From Mobula hypostoma (Eukaryota), in the NCBI RefSeq assembly GCF_963921235.1, contig NC_086108.1, positions 92,320,001 to 92,384,000 of the forward strand: a stretch of 64,000 nucleotides of DNA, in the 5' to 3' direction. Positions 7,194 to 54,600 of the stretch are shown here, one piece after another. The notes below the pieces were generated by a model. The model was not told where the DNA came from. It saw only the letters and a list, made by a program, of their open reading frames with translations, and made no database searches. Position 1 is the stretch's first letter; every line of letters starts with the position of its first letter. Made by a program: the position numbers and the translations under genes.

Positions 7194-7785
7194 TTGTACA
7201 AGGCCTTGGTGAGACCACACCTGGAGTATTGTGTGCAGTTTTGGTCCCCTAATCTGAGGAAAGACATCCTTGCCATAGAGGGAGTACAAAGAAGGTTCAC
7301 CAGATTGATTCCTGGGATGGCAGGACTTTCATATGATGAAAGACTGGACCGACTAGGCTTATACTCGTTGGAATTTAGAAGATTGAGGGGAGATCTTATT
7401 GAAACGTATAAAATCCTAAAGGGATTGGACAGGCTAGATGCAGGAAGATTGTTCCCAATGTTGGGGAAGTCCAGAACGAGGGGTCACAGTTTGAGGATAA
7501 AGGGGAAACCTTTTAGGACCGAGATTAGGAAAAACTTCTTCACATAGAGAGTGGTGAATCTGTGGAATTCTCTGCCACAGGAAACAGTTGAGGCCAGTTC
7601 ATTGGCTATATTTAAGAGGGAGTTAGATATAGCCCTTGTGGCTAAAGGGATCAGGGGGTATGGAGGGAAGGCTGGTACAGGGTTCTGAGTTGGATGAGCA
7701 GCCATGAACATACTGAATGGTGGTGCAGGCTCGAAGGGCTGAATGGCCTACTCCTGCACCTATTTTCTATGTTTCTATGTTTCTA
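7194..7785 (+). mobile_element. Young 5'-truncated CR1
   Basis: LYKALVRPHLEYCVQFWSPNLRKD ORF, GGTGCAGG...CCTGCACC hairpin, (TTTCTATG)n tail; nearly identical to 10658-11245. Confidence 0.93.
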
Positions 7786-8003
7786 ATGAAGGGAGACATC
7801 CTTGAAACCTATTGAATGGTGAAAGACCTTGATAGTGTGGATGTGGAGAGGTTGTTTCCTATGGTGGGAGAGTCTAAGACCAGAGGACACAGCCTCAAAG
7901 TAGAGGGGCATCCTTTTAGAATGGAGATGAGAAGGAATTTCTTTAGCCAGAGAATGGTAAATCTGTGGAATTCTTTGCCACAGGCAGCTGTAGAGACCAA
8001 GTC

Positions 8004-8114
8004 TTTTGGCGCAGGCGTGACCTGTACAAAAAGGACGGGTTACACTTGAATCCTAGGGGGACCAATATCCTGGCGGGGAGATTAGCGGGGGCTACTGAGG
8101 TGACTTTAAACTAG
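8004..8114 (+). pseudogene. CR1 ORF1 C-terminal remnant (SGNH esterase-like)
   Basis: FWRRRDLYKKDGLHLNPRGTNILAGRLAGATEVTLN*; DGLHL is the SGNH block V DxxH motif. Confidence 0.85.
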
Positions 8115-11100
8115 GATGGTTGGGGGGTGGGAATCAAATTAAAGAGGCTAGGCGTGAGGAGGTTAGTTCACAACAGAGGGATGGGAACCAGTGCAGAGAG
8201 ACAGAGGGGTGTAAAGTGAGCGTAGAAGCAAAAAGTACAAAGGAGAAAAGTAAAAGTGGCAGGCCGACAAATCCAGGGCAAGCATTGAAAAGGGCCACTT
8301 TTCAACATAATTGTACAAGGGCTAAGAGAGTTGTAAAAGAGCGCCTGAAGGCTTTATGTGTCAATGCAAGGAGCATTCGTAATAAGGTGGATGAATTGAG
8401 AGTGCAGATTGTTATTAATGATTATGATATAGTTGGGATCACAGAGACATGGCTCCAGGGTGACCAGGGATGGGAGCTCAACGTTCAGGGATATTCAATA
8501 TTCAGGAGGGATAGACATGAAGGAAGGGGAGGTGGGGTGGCGTTGCTGGTTAAAGAAGAGATTAACGCAATAGAAAGGAAGGACATAAGCCGGGAAGATG
8601 TGGAATCGATATGGGTAGAGCTGCGTAACACTAAGGGGCAGAAGACGCTGGTGGGAGTTGTGTACAGGCCACCTAACAGTAGTAGTGAGGTCGGAGATGG
8701 TATTGAACAGGAAATTAGAAATGTGTGCAATAAAGGAACAGCAGTTATAATGGGTGACTTCAATCTACATGTAGACTGGGTGAACCAAATTGGTAAAGGT
8801 GCTGAGGAAGAGGATTTCTTGGAATGTATGCGGGATGGTTTTTTGAACCAACATGTCGAGGAACCAGCTAGAGAGCAGGCTATTCTGGACTGGGTTTTGA
8901 GCAATGAGGAAGGGTTAATTAGCGATCTTGTCGTGAGAGGCCCCTTGGGTAAGAGTGACCATAATATGGTGGAATTCTTCATTAAGATGGAGAGTGACAT
9001 AGTTAATTCAGAAACAAAGGTTCTGAACTTAAAGAGGGGTAACTTTGAAGGTATGAGACGTGAATTAGCTAAGATAGACTGGCAAATGACACTTAAAGGA
9101 TTGACGGTGGATATGCAATGGCAAGCATTTATAGGTTGCATGGATGAACTACAACAATTGTTCATCCCAGTTTGGCAAAAGAATAAATCAAGGAAGGTAG
9201 TGCACCCGTGGCTGACAAGAGAAATTAGGGATAGTATCAATTCCAAAGAAGTAGCATACAAATTAGCCAGAGAAAGTGGCTCACCTGAGGACTGGGAGAA
9301 ATTCAGAGTTCAGCAGAGGAGGACAAAGGGCTTAATTAGGAAGGGGAAAAAAGATTATGAGAGAAACTGGCAGAGAACATAAAAACGGACTGTAAAAGCT
9401 TTTATAGATATGTAAAAAGGAAAAGACTGGTAAAGACAAATGTAGGTCCCCTGCAGACAGAAACAGGTGAATTGATTATGGGGAGCAAGGACATGGCAGA
9501 TCAATTGAATAATTACTTTGGTTCTGTCTTCACTAAGGAGGACATAAATAATCTTCCAGAAATAGTAAGGGACAGAGGGTCCAGTGAGATGGAGGAACTG
9601 AGTGAAATACATGTTAGTAGGGAAGTGGTGTTAGGTAAATTGAAGGGATTGAAGGCAGATAAATCCCCAGGGCCAGATGGTCTGCATCCTAGAGTGCTTA
9701 AGGAAGTAGCCCAAGAAATAGTGGATGCATTAGCGATAATTTTTCAAAACTCGTTAGATTCTGGACTAGTTCCTGAGGATTGGAGGGTGGCTAATGTAAC
9801 CCCAATTTTTAAAAAAGGAGGGAGAGAGAAACCGGGGAATTATAGACCGGTTAGCCTAACGTCGGTGATGGGGAAACTGCTGGAGTCAGTTATCAAGGAT
9901 GTGATAACAGCACATTTGGAAAGCGGAGAAATGATCGGACAAAGTCAGCATGGATTTGTGAAAGAAAAATCATGTCTGACGAATCTCATAGAATTTTTTG
10001 AGTATGTAACTAGTAGAGTGGATAGGGGAGAACCACTGGATGTGGTATATTTGGATTTTCAAAAGGCTTTTGACAAGGTCCCACACAGGAGATTAGTGTG
10101 CAAACTTAAAGCACACGGTATTGGGGGTAAGGTATTGGTGTGGGTGGAGAATTAGTTAGCAGACAGGAAGCAAAGAATGGGAATAAACGGGACCTTTTCA
10201 GAATGGCAGGCGGTGACTAGTGGGGTACCGCAAGGCTCAGTGCTGGGACCCCAGTTGTTTACAATATATATTAATGACTTGGATGAGGGAATTAAAGGCA
10301 GCATCTCCAAGTTTGCGGATGACACGAAGCTGGGCGGCAGTGTTAGCAGTGAGGAGGATGCTAAGAGGATGCAGGGTGACTTGGATAGGTTGGGTGAGTG
10401 GGCAAACTCATGGCAGATGCAATTTAATGTGGATAAATGTGAAGTTATCCACTTTGGTGGCAAAAATAGGAAAACAGATTATTATCTGAATGGTGGCCGA
10501 TTAGGAAAAGGGGAGGTGCAACGAGACCTGGGTGTCATTATACACCAGTCATTGAAAGTGGGCATGCAGGTACAGCAGGCAGTGAAAAAGGCGAATGGTA
10601 TGCTGGCACTTATAGCGAGAGGATTCGAGTACAGGAGCAGGGAGGTACTACTGCAGTTGTACAAGGCCTTGGTGAGACCACACCTGGAGTATTGTGTGCA
10701 GTTTTGGTCCCCTAATCTGAGGAAAGACATCTTTGCCATAGAGGGAGTACAAAGAAGGTTCACCAGATTGATTCCTGGCATGGCAGGACTTTCATATGAA
10801 GAAAGACTGGATGAACTGGGCTTGTACTCGTTGGAATTTAGAAGATTGAGGGGGGATCTGATTGAAACGTATAAGATCCTAAAGGGATTGGACAGGCTAG
10901 ATGCAGGAAGATTGTTCCCGATGTTGGGGAAGTCCAGAACGAGGGGTCACAGTTTGAGGATAGAGGGGAAGCCTTTTAGGACCGAGATTAGGAAAAACTT
11001 CTTCACACAGAGAGTGGTGAATCTGTGGAATTCTCTGCCACAGCAAACTGTTGAGGCCAGTTCATTGGCTATGTTTAAGAGGGAGTTAGATATGGCCCTT

Positions 11101-11151
11101 GTGGCTACAGGGGTCAGGGGGTATGGAGGGAAGGCTGGGGCGGGGTTCTGA
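8105..11151 (+). pseudogene. CR1 ORF2 (APE endonuclease + reverse transcriptase) with one frameshift and one nonsense codon
   Basis: NARS, ITETW, YRPP, GDFN and SDH (EN); YRPVSLTS, DFQKAFDKV, GVPQGSVLGP and KFADDTK (RT). 1-nt deletion at ~9365; TAG at 10153-10155 where the family has Trp. Confidence 0.93.
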
Positions 11152-11681
11152 GTTGGATGATCAGCCATGATCATAATAAATGGCGGTGCAGGCTCGAAGG
11201 GCCGAATGGCCTACTCCTGCACCAATTTTCTATGTTTCTATGTTTATGTATATTTAAGGCAGAGGTTGATATTTTCTTGATTGGTCAGGGCATGAAGGTG
11301 TACGGGGAGAAGGCAGGAGATTGGGGCTGAGTGGAAAATTAGATCAGACATAATGAAATGTCGGAGCAGACTCGATGGGCCAAATGGCCTAATCCTGCTC
11401 CTATATCTTATGGTCTTATATTTGCTCCAGATGGGATCCTTGCAGCCTGTTATCCAATAAGTTTGGCCTAACAATGCTTTCACAACTACTAACAAAATGC
11501 TAAAAGTGGTTAGAAACCACTTCAGCCAGTGGCAAGCTGGAACCAAGGCATGGAAACACTCACTACCAGGCTCAACAATAGATTCTATCCCGTCTTTATA
11601 AGATCATTGAACAGATCCTCTTATACAATAAAAACGAACTCTTAATTTCTCAATCTACCTCACCATGTCTTTTGCACCTTA

Positions 11682-12265
11682 TTTGTCTTCCTGTACTGCA
11701 TTGTGTCTGTAACTGTGACACTCTATTCTGCACTCTGTCATTTGTCTACCTGCACTGCATTGTGTCTGTATCTGTGACACTCTATCCTGCACTCTGTCAT
11801 TTGTCTACCTGCACTGCATTGTGTCTGTATCTGTGACACTCTATCCTGCACTCTGTCATTTGTCTACCTGCACTGCATTGTGCCTGTAACTATGACACTC
11901 TATTCTGCACTCTGTCATTTGTCTACCTGCACTGCATTGTGTCTGTAACTGTGACACTCTATTCTGCACTCTGTCATTTGTCTACCTGCACTGCATTGTG
12001 TCTGTATCCGTGACACTCTATCCTGCACTCTGTCATTTGTCTACCTGCACTGCATTGTGCCTGTAACTATGACACTCTATTCTGCACTCTGTCATTTGTC
12101 TACCTGCACTGCATTGTGTCTGTATCTGTGACACTCTATCCTGCACTCTGTCATTTGTCTACCTGCACTGCATTGTGCCTGTAACTATGACACTCTATTC
12201 TGCACTCTGTCATTTGTCTACCCGCACTGCATTGTGTCTGTATCTGTGACTCTGCATTCTGCATT
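11682..12265 (+). repeat. 59-bp minisatellite, ~10 copies
   Basis: Unit TTTGTCTACCTGCACTGCATTGTGTCTGTAACTGTGACACTCTATTCTGCACTCTGTCA starting at 11682, 11741, 11800 ... 12213. Confidence 0.95.
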
Positions 12266-12289
12266 CTATTCTTGTTTTTCCCTTTGCAA

Positions 12290-30474: not shown

Positions 30475-33400
30475 TAAGACCATAATACCACAAAGTACAG
30501 GAGCAGGAGTAGGCCATTCAGCCCATCGAGACTACACCATTCAATCATAGAAACATAGAAACATAGAAACTAGGTACAGGAGTAGGCCATTCAGCCCTTT
30601 GAGCCTGCACCGCCATTCAGTATGATCATGGCTGATCATCCAACTCAGAACCCTGCACCAGCCTTCCCTCCATACCCCCTGATCCCTTTAGCCACAAGGG
30701 CCATATCTAACTCCCTCTTAAATATAGCCAATGAACTGGCCTCAACTGTTTCCTGTGGCAGAGAATTCCACAGATTCACCACTCTCTGTGTGAAGAAGTT
30801 TTTCCTAATCTCAGTCCTAAAAGGCTTCCCCTTTATCCTCAAACTGTGACCCCTCATTCTGGACTTCCCCAACATCGGGAACAATCTTCCTGCATCTAGC
30901 CTGTCCAATCCCTTTAGGATTTTATACGTTTTAATCAGATCCCCCCTCAATCTTCTAAATTCCAATGAGTATAAGCCTAGTTCATCCAGTCTTTCATCAT
31001 ATGAAAATCCTGCCATCCCAGGAATCAATCTGGTGAACCTTCTTTGTACTCTCCCTATGGCAAGGATGTCTTTCCTCAGATTAGGGGACCAAAACTGCAC
31101 ACAATACTCCAGGTGTGGTCTCACCAAGGCCTTGTACAACTGTAGTAGTACAGTCATAGGCTGATCTTCCAGTCATCCATACTCCCCTGTCTTCTCCCCA
31201 TACCATTTGATGCCATGACTAATCTAGAACCTATCTCTGCCTTAAATGCACAATGACTTGGCCTCCACACCCACTCGTAGCACAAATTCCACAGATCTAC
31301 CACCCTCTGAATAAAGTAATTTCTCCACATCTCTGTTTTAAATGGACGTCCTTCAATCCTGAAGTTGTGCCCTCTTGTCTTAGACTCTCCTACCATGGGA
31401 AATAACTTTTCCATATCTAATTTGCTCAGGCCTTTTAACATTCGGAATGTTCCTATGAGATCCCCCCCCCCCCCCCATTCTCCTGACCTCCAGGGAATAC
31501 AGCCCAAGAGCTGCCTGACGTTCCTCATACGGTAACCCTTTCATTCCTGGAATCATTCTCGTGAATCTTCTCTGAACCCTCTCCAATGTCAGTGTATCCT
31601 TTCTGAAATAAGGAGCCCAAAACTGCACACAATACTCCAAGTGTGGTCTCATGAGTGCCTTATAGAGCCTCAACATCACATCCCTTCTCTTATATTCTAT
31701 ACCTCTGGAAATGAATGCCAGCATTGCATTCGCCTTCTTCACCACTAACTCAACCTGGAGGTTAACCTTTAGGATATCTTGCATGAGGACTCCCAAGTCC
31801 CTTTGCATCTCTGTATTTTGAATTCTCTCCCCATCTAAGTAATAGTCTGCCCGTTTATTTCTTCCACTAAAGTGCATGACGATACACTTTCATTTGTATT
31901 TCATTTGCCTCTTCTTTGCCCATTCCCCTAAACTATCTAAGTCTCTCTGCAGGCTCTCTGTTTCCTCAAAACTACCCGTTCCTCCACCTATCTTTGTATC
32001 ATCGCCAAATTTAGCCACAAATCAATTAATCCCATATTTCAGTTCATTGCATACATCATAAAAATCAGCGGTCCCAACACCGACCCCTGTGGAACTCCAC
32101 TGGTAACTGGCAGCCAGCCAGAATAGGATCCCTTTATTCCCACTCTCTGTTTTCTGCCGATCAGCCAATGCTCCACCCATGCTAGTAACTTATCTGTAAT
32201 TCCATGGGTTCTTATCTTGCTAAGCAGCCTAATGTGTGGCACCTTGTCAAAGGCCTTCTGAAAATCCAAGTACACCACGACTACTGCATCTCCTTTGTTC
32301 ATCCTGCTTGTAATTTCCTCAAAGAATTGCAGTAGGTTAGTCAGGCAGGATTTTCCTTTCAGGAAACTATACAGACTTTGGCCTATCTTGTCATGTGCAT
32401 GCAGGTATTCCATAATCGCATCCCTAACAATCGATTCTAACAACTTCCCAACCATTGATGTCAGGCTAACAGGTCTATAGTTTCCTTTCTGCTATCTCCC
32501 ACCCTTCTTAAATAGTCGAGTAACATTTGCAATTTTCCAGTCATCCGGTACAATGCCAGAATCTATTGATTCTTGAAAGATCATTGTTAATGCCTCCACA
32601 ATCTCTCCAGCTACTTCCTTCAGAACCCAAGGGTGCATTCCTTCACAACCAGGAGACTTATCCACCCTCATACCATTAGGCTTCCTGTGCAATTTCTCAG
32701 TCGTAATTTTCACTGAACATACTTCACTTCCCTGACACTCTTGAATGTCCAGTATACTGCAGATGTCTTCCACTGTGAAGACTGATGCAAAACACACATT
32801 CAGTTCTTCTGCCATTTCTGTGTCTCTCATTACAATATCTTCCATGTCATTTTCTATTGGTCCTATTATCTACCCTCAATTGTCTTTTACACTTTATAAA
32901 ATTTCTTCTTTATATAAATAGTTTCTTTTCATAATTCATCTTTTCCTTCTTAAAGACCTCCTTAGTTTCCTTCTGCAAGTTTTTATAAGCTTCTCAATCC
33001 TCTATCTTCCTACTAGCTTTGGCTTCCTTGTATGCCCTCTGTTTTGCTTTTACTTTGGCTCTGACTTCACTTGTCAGCCATGGTAGCGTCCTTCTTCGAT
33101 TTGAAAATTTCTTCTTATTTGGAATATATCTGTCTTGCACTTCCCTCCTTTTTCGCAGAAACTCCAGCCATTGCTGCTCTGCTGTCCTTCCTGCCAGTGT
33201 CCCTCTCCAGTCAACCTTGGCCAGTTCCCCTCTCATGCCATTGTAATTTCCTTTATTCCACTGGAATACCGACACATTGGAATTTAGTTTCTCCTTCTCA
33301 AGTTTCAAAGTGAACTTGATCATATTGTGATCACTGTTCCCTTAGGGTTCCTTAACCTTAAGCTCTCTTATCACCTCCGGATCATTGCACAACACCCAAT

Positions 33401-51965: not shown

Positions 51966-54150
51966 ATCCTGGCTGGAAAATTTGGACTTCTGGTGAAGTT
52001 ACAACATTAAACAAAAGCAGGTAACTGTGCTGCTTATGGGTACAGGAGCAGACCGTTTGGCCCCAAAGGACTGTACGCCATTCAAATTTCAATGTAAATT
52101 TATTATCCAAGTTTGTATATGTCACCATTTACTACCTTGGGATTCACCTCCTTGCAGGCATTCACAATAGAACAAAGAAATACAATAGATTTAATGAAAA
52201 GCTACACAAAAAATTGACAACTAACGTGTTAAGACAAACTGTTCAGATACAACATTTTTAAAAATCATAATAAATAAATAATACTGAAAACTTTAGTTGT
52301 AGATTCCTCAAAAGTGAGCCCATGGGTAGTGGAATCAGTTCAGAGTTGAGGTGAGTGAAGCTATCCATGCTGGTTCAGGAGCCTAATGGTTGAAGGTAAC
52401 AACGGTTACTGAATCTGGTGGTATGGGACCTAAGGCTCCTGTACCTCCTTCCTGATGACAACAGCAAGAAGAGAGCATGGCCTGGATGGTGGGCGTCCTT
52501 GATGGTGGATGCTGCTTCCCTGTGCCAGTGTTCCCTGTAGATGTGCTCAATGGTGAGCTCATTGAGATTGCACCTGACCTATCCCCTAACTTCACTCGAC
52601 CTTATCCCAAAGTACACTTGATTGGTTAAAAACATATTGCACCTCTCTCAGATTTTAGATTAATACTGACCTAACGTCAACTGTCATTTACAAATAAGAA
52701 TTTCAGTTTCTCCCACACTTTTGATTCCTTATTTCTCTCCAAACTGTTGGGATCATATTGAATGTCCAAGTTGGGGTGAATGGCTTCTTTTCACGCTGGG
52801 TGACTCTAAATTGTGTATTGATTTAAACAGTTCTTGTCCATGAGTTTCAAAATTAATTTTGCATTACCAACAATAAAGTTCCAATTGGGATTTGCCTCTC
52901 AGTCAAATGGAGACTACTATTTCAACATACTTCATTTTAAATATTTTTCTGAATATCTGGAAATTTCTCAGCATTTGATTCCAATGAATTTGCATTCCCT
53001 TACATGTTTCTCAAGTCAGAATTTTCTTTTTTATTATTATCTAGATACCTGCAGCACAGAATATCAGTTCTTCAAGCCACACCACTAAGCATTCCTCAAT
53101 TTAACCCTAGCCCAATCAGCAGACAATTTACAATGACCAAATAACCTACTAACCAGTATGTCTTTGGACTACGGAAGGAAACTGGAGCACCCAGAGAAAG
53201 CACACAGGCTCGTGGGGAGGACGTACAAACTCCGAACTGAACTCCGAACTCCAACGCCCCAAGTTGTAATAGTGTCGCGCTAACTGTTACACTACTGTGG
53301 CAAACCAATGTCATGCAGACAACGCAAACACGAGGAATTCTGCAGATGCTGGAAATTCAAGCAAAACACATCAAAGTTGCTGGTGAACGCAGCAGGCCAG
53401 GCAGCATCTCTAGGAAGAGGTACGGTCGACGTTTCGGGCCGAGACCCTTTGTCAGGACTAACCGAAGGAAGAGTTAGTAAGAGATCTGAAAGTGGGAGGG
53501 GAAGGGGTAGATCCAAAATGATAGGAGAAGACAGGGGAGGGGGGGGATGGAGCCAAGAGCTGGACAGGAGATTGGCAAAAGGGATATGAGAGGATCATGG
53601 GACAGGAGGCCCAGGGAGAAGAAAAAGGAGGAGGGGGGAAAAAAAGCCCCAGACGATGGGCAAGGGGTATAGTCAGAGGGACAGAGGGAGAAAAAGGAGA
53701 GAGAGAGAAAGAATGTGTGTATATAAATAAATAACGGATGGGGTACAAGGGGAAGATGGGGCATTAGCGGAAGTTCATGCCATCAGGTTAGAGGCTACCC
53801 AGACGGAATATAAGGTGTTGTTCCTCCAACCTGAGTGTGGCTTCATCTTTACAGTAGAGGAGGCCGTGGATAGACATATCAGAATGGGAATGGGATGTGG
53901 AATTAAAATGTGTGGCCACTGGGAGATCCTGCTTTCTCTGGCGGACAGAGCGTAGGTGTTCAGCAAAACAATCTCCCAGTCTGCGTCGGGTCTCGCCAAT
54001 ATATAGGCCACATCGGGAGCACTGTATTCAGTATATCACCCCAGCCGACTCACAGGTGAAGTGTCACCTCACCTGGGAGGACTGTCTGGGTCCCTGAATG
54101 GTGGTAAGAGAGGAAGTGTAAGGGCATGTGTAGCACATGTTCCACTTACA

Positions 54151-54600
54151 TCCCCCCCATCCCTCCCCACTGATCTCCCTCCTGGCACTTATCCTTGTAA
54201 GCGGAACGAGTGCTACACATGCCCTTACACTTCCTCTCTTACCACCATTCAGGGCCCCAGACAGTCCTTCCAGGTGAGGCGACACTTCACCTGTGAGTCG
54301 GCTGGGGTGATATACTGCGTCCGGTGCTCCCGATGTGGCCTTTTATATATTGGCGAGACCCGACGCAGACTGGGAGACCGCTTTGCTGAACACCTACGCT
54401 CTGTCTGCCAGAGAAAGCAGGATCTCCCAGTGGCCACACATTTTAATTCCACATCCCATTCCCATTCTGACATGTCTATCCACGGCCTCCTCTACTGTAA
54501 AGATGAAGCCACACACAGGTTGGAGGAACAACACCTTGTATTCCGTCTGGGTAGCCTCCAACCTGATGGCATGAACATCGACTTCTCTAACTTCCGCTAA
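54151..54600 (+). pseudogene. Penelope ORF C-terminus: Cys-rich linker and GIY-YIG endonuclease (5'-truncated)
   Basis: CKRNECYTC...GVIYCVRCSRCGLLYIGETRRRLGDRFAEH...VATHFN...LEEQHLVFRLGSLQPDGMN. Confidence 0.9.

Follow-up and report, generated by a model that had tools for sequence, protein, structure and literature searches.

The window analysed here is a stretch of 64,000 nucleotides from Mobula hypostoma (contig NC_086108.1, positions 92,320,001 to 92,384,000 of the forward strand), and all positions below are counted from its first letter. It contains a copy of CR1, a long interspersed nuclear element (LINE) with two open reading frames (ORFs), ORF1 for an esterase protein and ORF2 for the endonuclease (EN) and reverse transcriptase (RT). 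Our subject is the junction of the two frames and the way in which the second is translated. To our knowledge, the LINEs studied to date express ORF2 by reinitiation, so that their two proteins stay separate. In birds CR1 dominates among the interspersed repeats, occupying 11.8% of the chicken model chromosomes (PMC11835228). It is abundant also in reptiles and cartilaginous fish, and its route to the ORF2 protein (ORF2p) appears undescribed. The copy and its parts, all on the plus strand, are as follows.

8002..11245, + strand: inactive CR1 LINE copy, truncated at its 5' end, from an abundant family; 98.6% identical over 3,257 nt to the intact copy L136
8002..8114, + strand: 3' end of ORF1 (SGNH/GDSL esterase, DGLH block), ending ...EVTLN and stop; assigned by PF13472 on intact ORF1 and by the match to ZfL2-1 esterase 4c1b
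8096..8098, + strand: TGA bounding the -1 frame upstream; two codons (GGT GAC) remain before the heptamer, neither of them a start
8105..8111, + strand: slippery heptamer U_UUA_AAC in ORF1 phase
8112..8114, + strand: ORF1 stop abutting the heptamer, here TAG
8116..8142, + strand: short ATG-started frame of 8 codons (+1 frame), outside the ORF2 frame
8122..8131, + strand: G tract, candidate stimulator; five Gs (8122-8126) at +10 to +14 past the heptamer, usually followed by NN-RGG
8174..8188, + strand: remnant of the G tract belonging to the sister family that supplied ORF2; recombination has shifted it by 54 nt, and the run of Gs is broken
8105..8362, + strand: Lys/Arg/Ser-rich linker of 86 codons in the -1 frame, without AUG; GTG at 8216-8218 replaces the ATG of the sister family
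8363..8962, + strand: APE endonuclease domain of ORF2 (NARS, ITETW, GDFN, SDHN motifs); the first in-frame ATG, 8750, falls within it
8963..11151, + strand: remaining ORF2 including the reverse transcriptase; natural stop at 11149-11151
11152..11245, + strand: 3' untranslated region (UTR), with 8-bp repeats at its end (TTTCTATG twice, 11227-11242) and no poly(A)

The copy in the window is dead, and its junction matters as a preserved signal of the family and the clade. It begins at about 8002 and retains only the last ~37 codons of ORF1. One nucleotide is deleted from its ORF2 near 9365, and a TAG at 10153-10155 ends that frame prematurely. The G at 8115 is private to this copy, A standing there in 29 of the 30 family loci, so that the reading after a shift would be LEW in family copies and LGW only here. 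Genome-wide, a 201-nt junction query gave 778 first-look candidates for the family. The closest proteins with a name point to a ray host, the match to one from Mobula being 95%. Its intact ORF1 comprises a Cys finger, a coiled coil and the SGNH esterase (PF13472, tested on family copy L002), which matches the ZfL2-1 esterase 4c1b with an E value of 1.4e-28, and ORF2 carries the APE endonuclease (PF03372/PF14529) and RT (PF00078) in an intact frame of 1,015 codons. A 3' end made of short tandem repeats, without poly(A), is a hallmark of CR1. The named matches to the EN region of the family came from rays, a frog, a crane and an anole, and the end of ORF1 is identical to that of CR1-labelled rows in PMC13343379. 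The family is like canonical vertebrate CR1 (subgroup 7, ORF1 type IVB; PMC4120745, PMC13343379) in the zinc finger, coiled coil and SGNH esterase of ORF1, the APE endonuclease and RT of ORF2 and the 8-bp 3' repeats. The 5' UTR of L136 contains a duplicated 22-nt motif with a TTTAAAA box, resembling tandem promoter monomers.

By origin the family is a recombinant, 72% identical to a sister family (L127, L128) in ORF1 and 92% in EN. The joint lies within the linker (window 8105-8218 compared with L127 and L128), where a different ORF1 with its junction was placed onto the ORF2 of the sister family and the junction region was duplicated.

A sequence-only reading of this stretch had suggested that a -1 ribosomal frameshift produces an esterase-EN-RT fusion, possibly stimulated by the adjacent stop or by a G-quadruplex, and the geometry it described proved correct throughout. 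ORF1 ends in ACT TTA AAC TAG at 8103-8114, with the heptamer TTTAAAC of 8105-8111 in ORF1 phase, and the -1 frame, open over 8099-9382, is closed upstream by the TGA at 8096-8098, which leaves an overlap of 16 nt. The first in-frame ATG of ORF2, at 8750, lies past the NARS motif at 8363 and inside the endonuclease, while the ATG at 8116 is out of frame (+1) and stops after 8 codons at the TAA of 8140-8142. The G-rich run after the junction lies at 8118-8131. The junction 10-mer occurs once in the 64-kb window against 0.57 expected, which alone is within chance; the case therefore rests on phase, position and conservation. The heptamer is the sole in-phase X_XXY_YYZ word in the intact ORF1 of L136, and it is absent from 2,940 nt of the ORF2 body of that copy. 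In the intact copies L136 and L137, ORF1 has 341 open codons and the -1 frame 1,015, with the EN motif at codon 86 and the first Met at codon 215. The window copy thus did not lose an early AUG, since intact family copies also have no in-frame AUG before the EN motif. Among 14 family representatives the ORF1 stop is TAG in 8 and TAA in 6; TGA was never seen in these intact representatives (n=14), though it would likewise read Leu in the -1 frame.

The same arrangement, in which T_TTA_AAC and a stop end ORF1 in phase and ORF2 lies in the -1 frame, was found without exception in the ray families examined. Bird-type loci have it too, as does a distant element on contigs of metagenome-assembled genomes (MAGs). 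For the blind tallies, loci were chosen because their ORF1 proteins were similar, with an ORF1 profile lacking its last nine codons as the anchor, and the assignment of tally rows to groups follows the group order in the script. The exact heptamer was present in 16/20, 19/20 and 7/8 ray loci from three queries, in 20/20 of a further set of stretches (six of which repeat earlier loci), and in 10/20 loci of an old decayed ray family with many stops, where 7 more had one mismatch. Thirty-one bird-type metagenome loci were fetched, and 7 of the 9 that reach the end of ORF1 kept the heptamer exactly; the other two had a mismatch and a heptamer displaced by a deletion, respectively. The MAG-borne element, whose ORF2 is 37-43% identical to ray ORF2, kept it in both loci that reach the end of ORF1 (3 fetched). 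EN was in the -1 frame wherever the linker was unbroken, and neither the heptamer nor its phase, the conservation of which the sequence-only reading had made a point to check, varied among the families examined. The junction also occurs in consensus rows of PMC13343379 for alligator, crocodile, bowfin, bullfrog, chimaera, coelacanth, sawfish, stingray, catshark and dogfish; these supplement rows were selected by the motif itself from the first 400 nt of each, and some matches are unrelated 5' UTR or L2. As a side observation, loci L142 and L143 are animal LINE sequence within bacterial GTDB MAG contigs and the NCBI entries of the CR1 proteins P0023 and P0481 bear the names Pseudomonas and Carnobacterium, in both cases likely by host contamination.

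All 14 family representatives encode the terminal Leu by TTA and Asn by AAC and have T as the preceding base, and the residue before Leu varies over seven (Thr, Gly, Asp, Ala, Cys, Ser and Tyr). Just one of 14 other conserved degenerate columns of ORF1 keeps a single codon. From ORF1 codon usage (TTA for 21 of 203 Leu, AAC for 23 of 68 Asn, third-position T at 0.24) this combination is expected at ~0.008 per independent lineage. As judged from codon choice, the constraint at the junction is on nucleotides, beyond any coding need.

At the protein level, LN closes 84 of the 94 ORF1 homologues that reach the end in a set of 121, and 87 of 104 in a set of 115, and these come from sharks, rays, coelacanth, frogs, turtles, squamates and birds. 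A survey of more distant tails covered the best 150 representatives at 50% clustering, of which 122 had a normal tail and 84 were left after dereplication. In 47 of these 84 an X_XXY_YYZ heptamer could code for the final tripeptide (LN 34, GN 10, KN 2, KK 1), against 3.6% of internal tripeptides. Compatible sites also occurred further in: three tails have GF, one residue earlier, and six have KN, at 10-11 residues from the stop. The preceding residue allows the needed base in 11/11 GN, 8/8 KN and 4/4 GF cases. We infer that the ends of distant esterase ORF1 proteins correspond to the three remaining classic slippery heptamers (predicted as GGGAAAC for GN, AAAAAAC for KN and GGGTTTT for GF, with ORF2 in -1). 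A frameshift site would be expected to switch among just this set of words, which the other explanations would not predict. The residue at -3 is incompatible with a T-ending codon in 2/84 tails versus 36/84 at -4 and -5, a contrast weakened by similarly low counts at -6 and -7 (3 and 4 of 84). The viral contigs searched held no DNA for the GN, KN and GF classes, and the GN-type protein P0360 led only to LN-type elements in the ray genome and two MAGs and to nothing more in 400 further genomes.

The G_UUA_AAC word is a known viral slippery variant. The E-L-N ends of P0037, P0101 and P0484-P0490, together with the VKL reading in frog proteins, would fit it, although these cases are known from protein only. 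In P0399, P0423, P0433, P0449 and others, S/T-K-N stands at the usual place and the stop follows 10-12 codons later, which suggests a slippery site without an adjacent stop. P0159, P0204 and their relatives have an SH3 domain ahead of the esterase and a YLN end, and their nearest named relative is from a tubeworm (P0152); an invertebrate origin is suggested by that one name only. Esterase ORF1 of the CR1 type has been described as exclusively vertebrate (PMC4120745).

Downstream of the stop, G occupies positions +10 to +14 past the heptamer in 15, 15, 14, 15 and 14 of 15 representatives, and the five-G tract is present too in the MAG-borne element, the alligator row and one crocodile row. In the ORF2 frame, two of these Gs fall on third codon positions, where the residue encoded is Gln, Lys, Leu, Arg, Ser or Gly. 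The displaced sister tract has lost a G (CAG AGG GAT versus CAG GGG GAT, one case). The G-rich element suspected by the sequence-only reading is thus upheld as a conserved tract at 10-nt spacing, but not as a quadruplex, which was predicted in only 5/14 representatives, in none of the bird-type ones and not in the MAG-borne one, and was rejected as a general feature. No local hairpin stood out, with 60-nt folds at z -1.4 to +0.7 in 15 representatives and one 100-nt fold at -2.7.

We conclude that CR1 very probably makes an ORF1-ORF2 fusion by programmed -1 frameshifting at U_UUA_AAC. The proposal of an esterase-EN-RT fusion, as far as sequence comparison can probe it, survived every refutation test run on it (AUG, heptamer and phase). 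The junction is a genuine signal of the whole clade, carried here by a dead copy of the ordinary kind. It most likely marks a programmed -1 frameshift not described before, with a 3' element that is unusual in being free of structure. The putative signal is compact, consisting of heptamer, stop, 7 nt and five Gs. A fraction of ribosomes would slip by -1 on U_UUA_AAC, reading CUA in place of the stop, and would yield one ORF1-linker-endonuclease-reverse transcriptase protein of ~1,320 residues, which presumably stays uncleaved, the element being without a protease. Most ribosomes would terminate and give the ORF1 protein (ORF1p), and the ratio of ORF1p to polymerase could be set as it is for Gag and Gag-Pol. 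A protein on the G tract, either a host binder of G runs or ORF1p, might block the mRNA entry channel, and slow termination at the adjacent stop might assist the slip. If this is true, the reverse transcriptase of CR1 would be joined to an esterase that associates with membranes, the ORF2 starts annotated for CR1 would be wrong and CR1 may be subject to host controls that act on viral frameshifting.

Several observations weigh against this proposal or parts of it. An early in-frame AUG occurs in 9 of 13 family representatives, at codon 3, 3, 4, 4, 4, 8, 22, 38 and 59; five of the nine lie 3-4 codons in, two as UAAUG, which would make reinitiation possible there. The 14 representatives were picked after their junctions had been seen and the families share ancestry, and it is therefore the blind tallies that carry weight. 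Among the distant tails, 16 of 84 have no compatible tripeptide, the GN, KN and GF classes are known from protein only and were found with a search profile rich in LN (26/28), and in two LN proteins the residue ahead of Leu is Glu, which is incompatible with T at heptamer position 1. The low-confidence gecko consensus EubMac_CR1-1, found with a neutral term in PMC13343379, is without the exact heptamer, and several consensus rows from the same source do not have the 10-nt spacing. Nested folds and duplex scanning showed neither a stem-loop nor a pseudoknot of the canonical kind 3' of the heptamer (z +0.68), and when ten near-full-length elements were scanned for duplexes, the G tract had no long-range partner at a shared position. 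With neither a structure nor a shared partner, the frameshift efficiency could be low.

The early AUGs need closer consideration, since the absence of such a codon, noted by the sequence-only reading for this copy, is not clade-wide: the nine representatives with an AUG before EN include all 5 bird-type ones. No Met precedes the EN motif in the remaining 4 of 13 (three ray, one MAG-borne). Among 30 family loci, which were picked by junction similarity and are no test of the heptamer itself, 1 carries an ATG in frame ahead of the EN motif, and the second Met counted by the script follows a stop in a broken copy; the SART1 arrangement, with an AUG in frame that overlaps the ORF1 stop or adjoins it, is absent in the family of the window copy. 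Neither the presence nor the absence of the AUG is universal; it shifts its place or disappears while the heptamer stays. Reinitiation may coexist with frameshifting in some lineages.

Termination-reinitiation could in principle supply all of ORF2p, either independently of AUG as in L1 (for example at GTG 8216 or TTG 8120) or elsewhere from a nearby AUG, with heptamer, stop and G tract acting as the reinitiation signal or frameshifting being a minor route. The L1 ORF2 initiation is described as AUG-independent (PMC5009743) and SART1 uses UAAUG (PMC2699510); the CR1 linker contains near-cognate codons, UAAUG is found in ray family 5 and in the bird locus L044, and three bird loci have an AUG at +5. 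However, reinitiation leaves unexplained why X_XXY_YYZ stands in ORF1 phase at fixed nucleotides, why ORF2 invariably takes the -1 frame and has no stop from the heptamer on, why the AUG may sit anywhere between codons 3 and 59 or be missing, and why distant ORF1 ends read as other slippery heptamers. We thus regard this explanation as quite unlikely.

It is very unlikely that ORF2 is translated from a separate RNA, spliced or internally started, even though TTTAAA is like a TATA variant, CTAG is like a 3' splice site and G runs are known splicing elements, so that the tract could serve a promoter or splicing. The TAA stop of 6/14 representatives removes the AG of the acceptor, a transcript starting past the stop would have no in-frame AUG before EN in 4/13 families, and promoter or splice signals need no codon phase; on these grounds the splice-acceptor and TATA-like readings were rejected. 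Contigs of four runs, which are possibly DNA and can show neither absence nor transcription, had no joint at the junction. Still less credible is that the motif is kept only for the Leu-Asn at the C-terminus of ORF1p and the Gly-x-Gly of ORF2p, with no role in recoding. The near invariance of LN in ORF1 proteins agrees with this protein-only constraint, but the idea is largely refuted by synonymous sites that are fixed at the junction and variable at other conserved codons. Moreover, the displaced Gly-x-Gly relic was mutated to Arg in a family that later amplified, and the ORF2 of the AUG-less families would still need a start.

The U_UUA_AAC word is the -1 frameshift heptamer of coronaviruses. 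The CR1 junction is like coronavirus and retroviral or long terminal repeat (LTR) element gag-pol frameshifting in having the same heptamer (as in coronaviruses), a -1 overlap and, as proposed here, a fusion of structural protein and polymerase at a controlled ratio. It differs in that the stop abuts the heptamer, the host is a non-LTR element without a protease and nested folds and a duplex scan showed no stem-loop or pseudoknot 5-9 nt downstream, where the canonical structure sits (PMC7618472). A closer parallel for the 3' element is the -2/-1 frameshift in nsp2 of PRRSV (the virus that causes porcine reproductive and respiratory syndrome), in which a C-rich motif is bound by nsp1beta and PCBP and the protein complex acts as a roadblock, with a spacer of 10 nt and spacers of 9-11 nt being functional (PMC4937337). 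The two systems share a short linear motif, the 10-nt spacer and the lack of obvious structure, whereas the CR1 motif is G-rich, its heptamer is canonical and its trans-acting protein is only putative. By this speculative analogy a protein bound to the G tract is favoured as the stimulator, albeit tentatively. That stop-driven pausing alone could suffice seems doubtful; pairing with a distant or second RNA is unlikely, and a quadruplex would be a similarly improbable stimulator.

Among LINEs, mammalian L1 and Bombyx SART1 are comparable in having a bicistronic RNA that requires low-level ORF2; neither makes a fusion, and L1 differs in its inter-ORF spacer and unconventional initiation (PMC5009743) and SART1 in its UAAUG coupling (PMC2699510). 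Dictyostelium TRE5-A is also a non-LTR element with overlapping ORFs, and a slippery site could not be confirmed for it, as the word frameshift is absent from the available text of the review PMC5633606. Drosophila HeT-A has a frameshift within gag and, unlike CR1, no RT (PMC5009743). The word frameshift is absent from the available main texts of PMC4120745 and PMC13343379, where ORF2 translation is not addressed, and the latter has 0 occurrences of slippery and overlap. We found no report of CR1 frameshifting in the literature searched, including the available portions of PMC11835228, PMC4255032, PMC5009743 (CR1 being mentioned 0 times in its searched part) and PMC3905857; the 1997 turtle and chicken papers, Kapitonov and Jurka 2003, Kojima 2005 and the Repbase notes lay outside this search and may mention an overlap or frameshift.

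With more reserve, we hypothesize that esterase LINEs across animals could make a Gag-Pol-like fusion at a -1 site that switches among the four classic heptamers, and that in the CR1 branch the shift might be driven by a protein on the five-G tract 10 nt downstream and not by an RNA fold. This would be a natural, ancient and non-viral case of protein-stimulated frameshifting, open to regulation by the host or the element.

Apart from the copy described, the window has CR1 3' fragments at 7194-7786, 7849-7999 and 30548-31151, belonging to the same family (94.6% and 95%) and to another CR1 family, which are stacked directly upstream of the copy and occur elsewhere in the window. A 197-codon frame at 54007-54600 has a weak GIY-YIG match under the Pfam cut-off and is possibly a Penelope-like fragment. 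Downstream of the copy, at 11681-12267, lies a minisatellite with a 59-bp unit in 9.9 copies and 93% matches.

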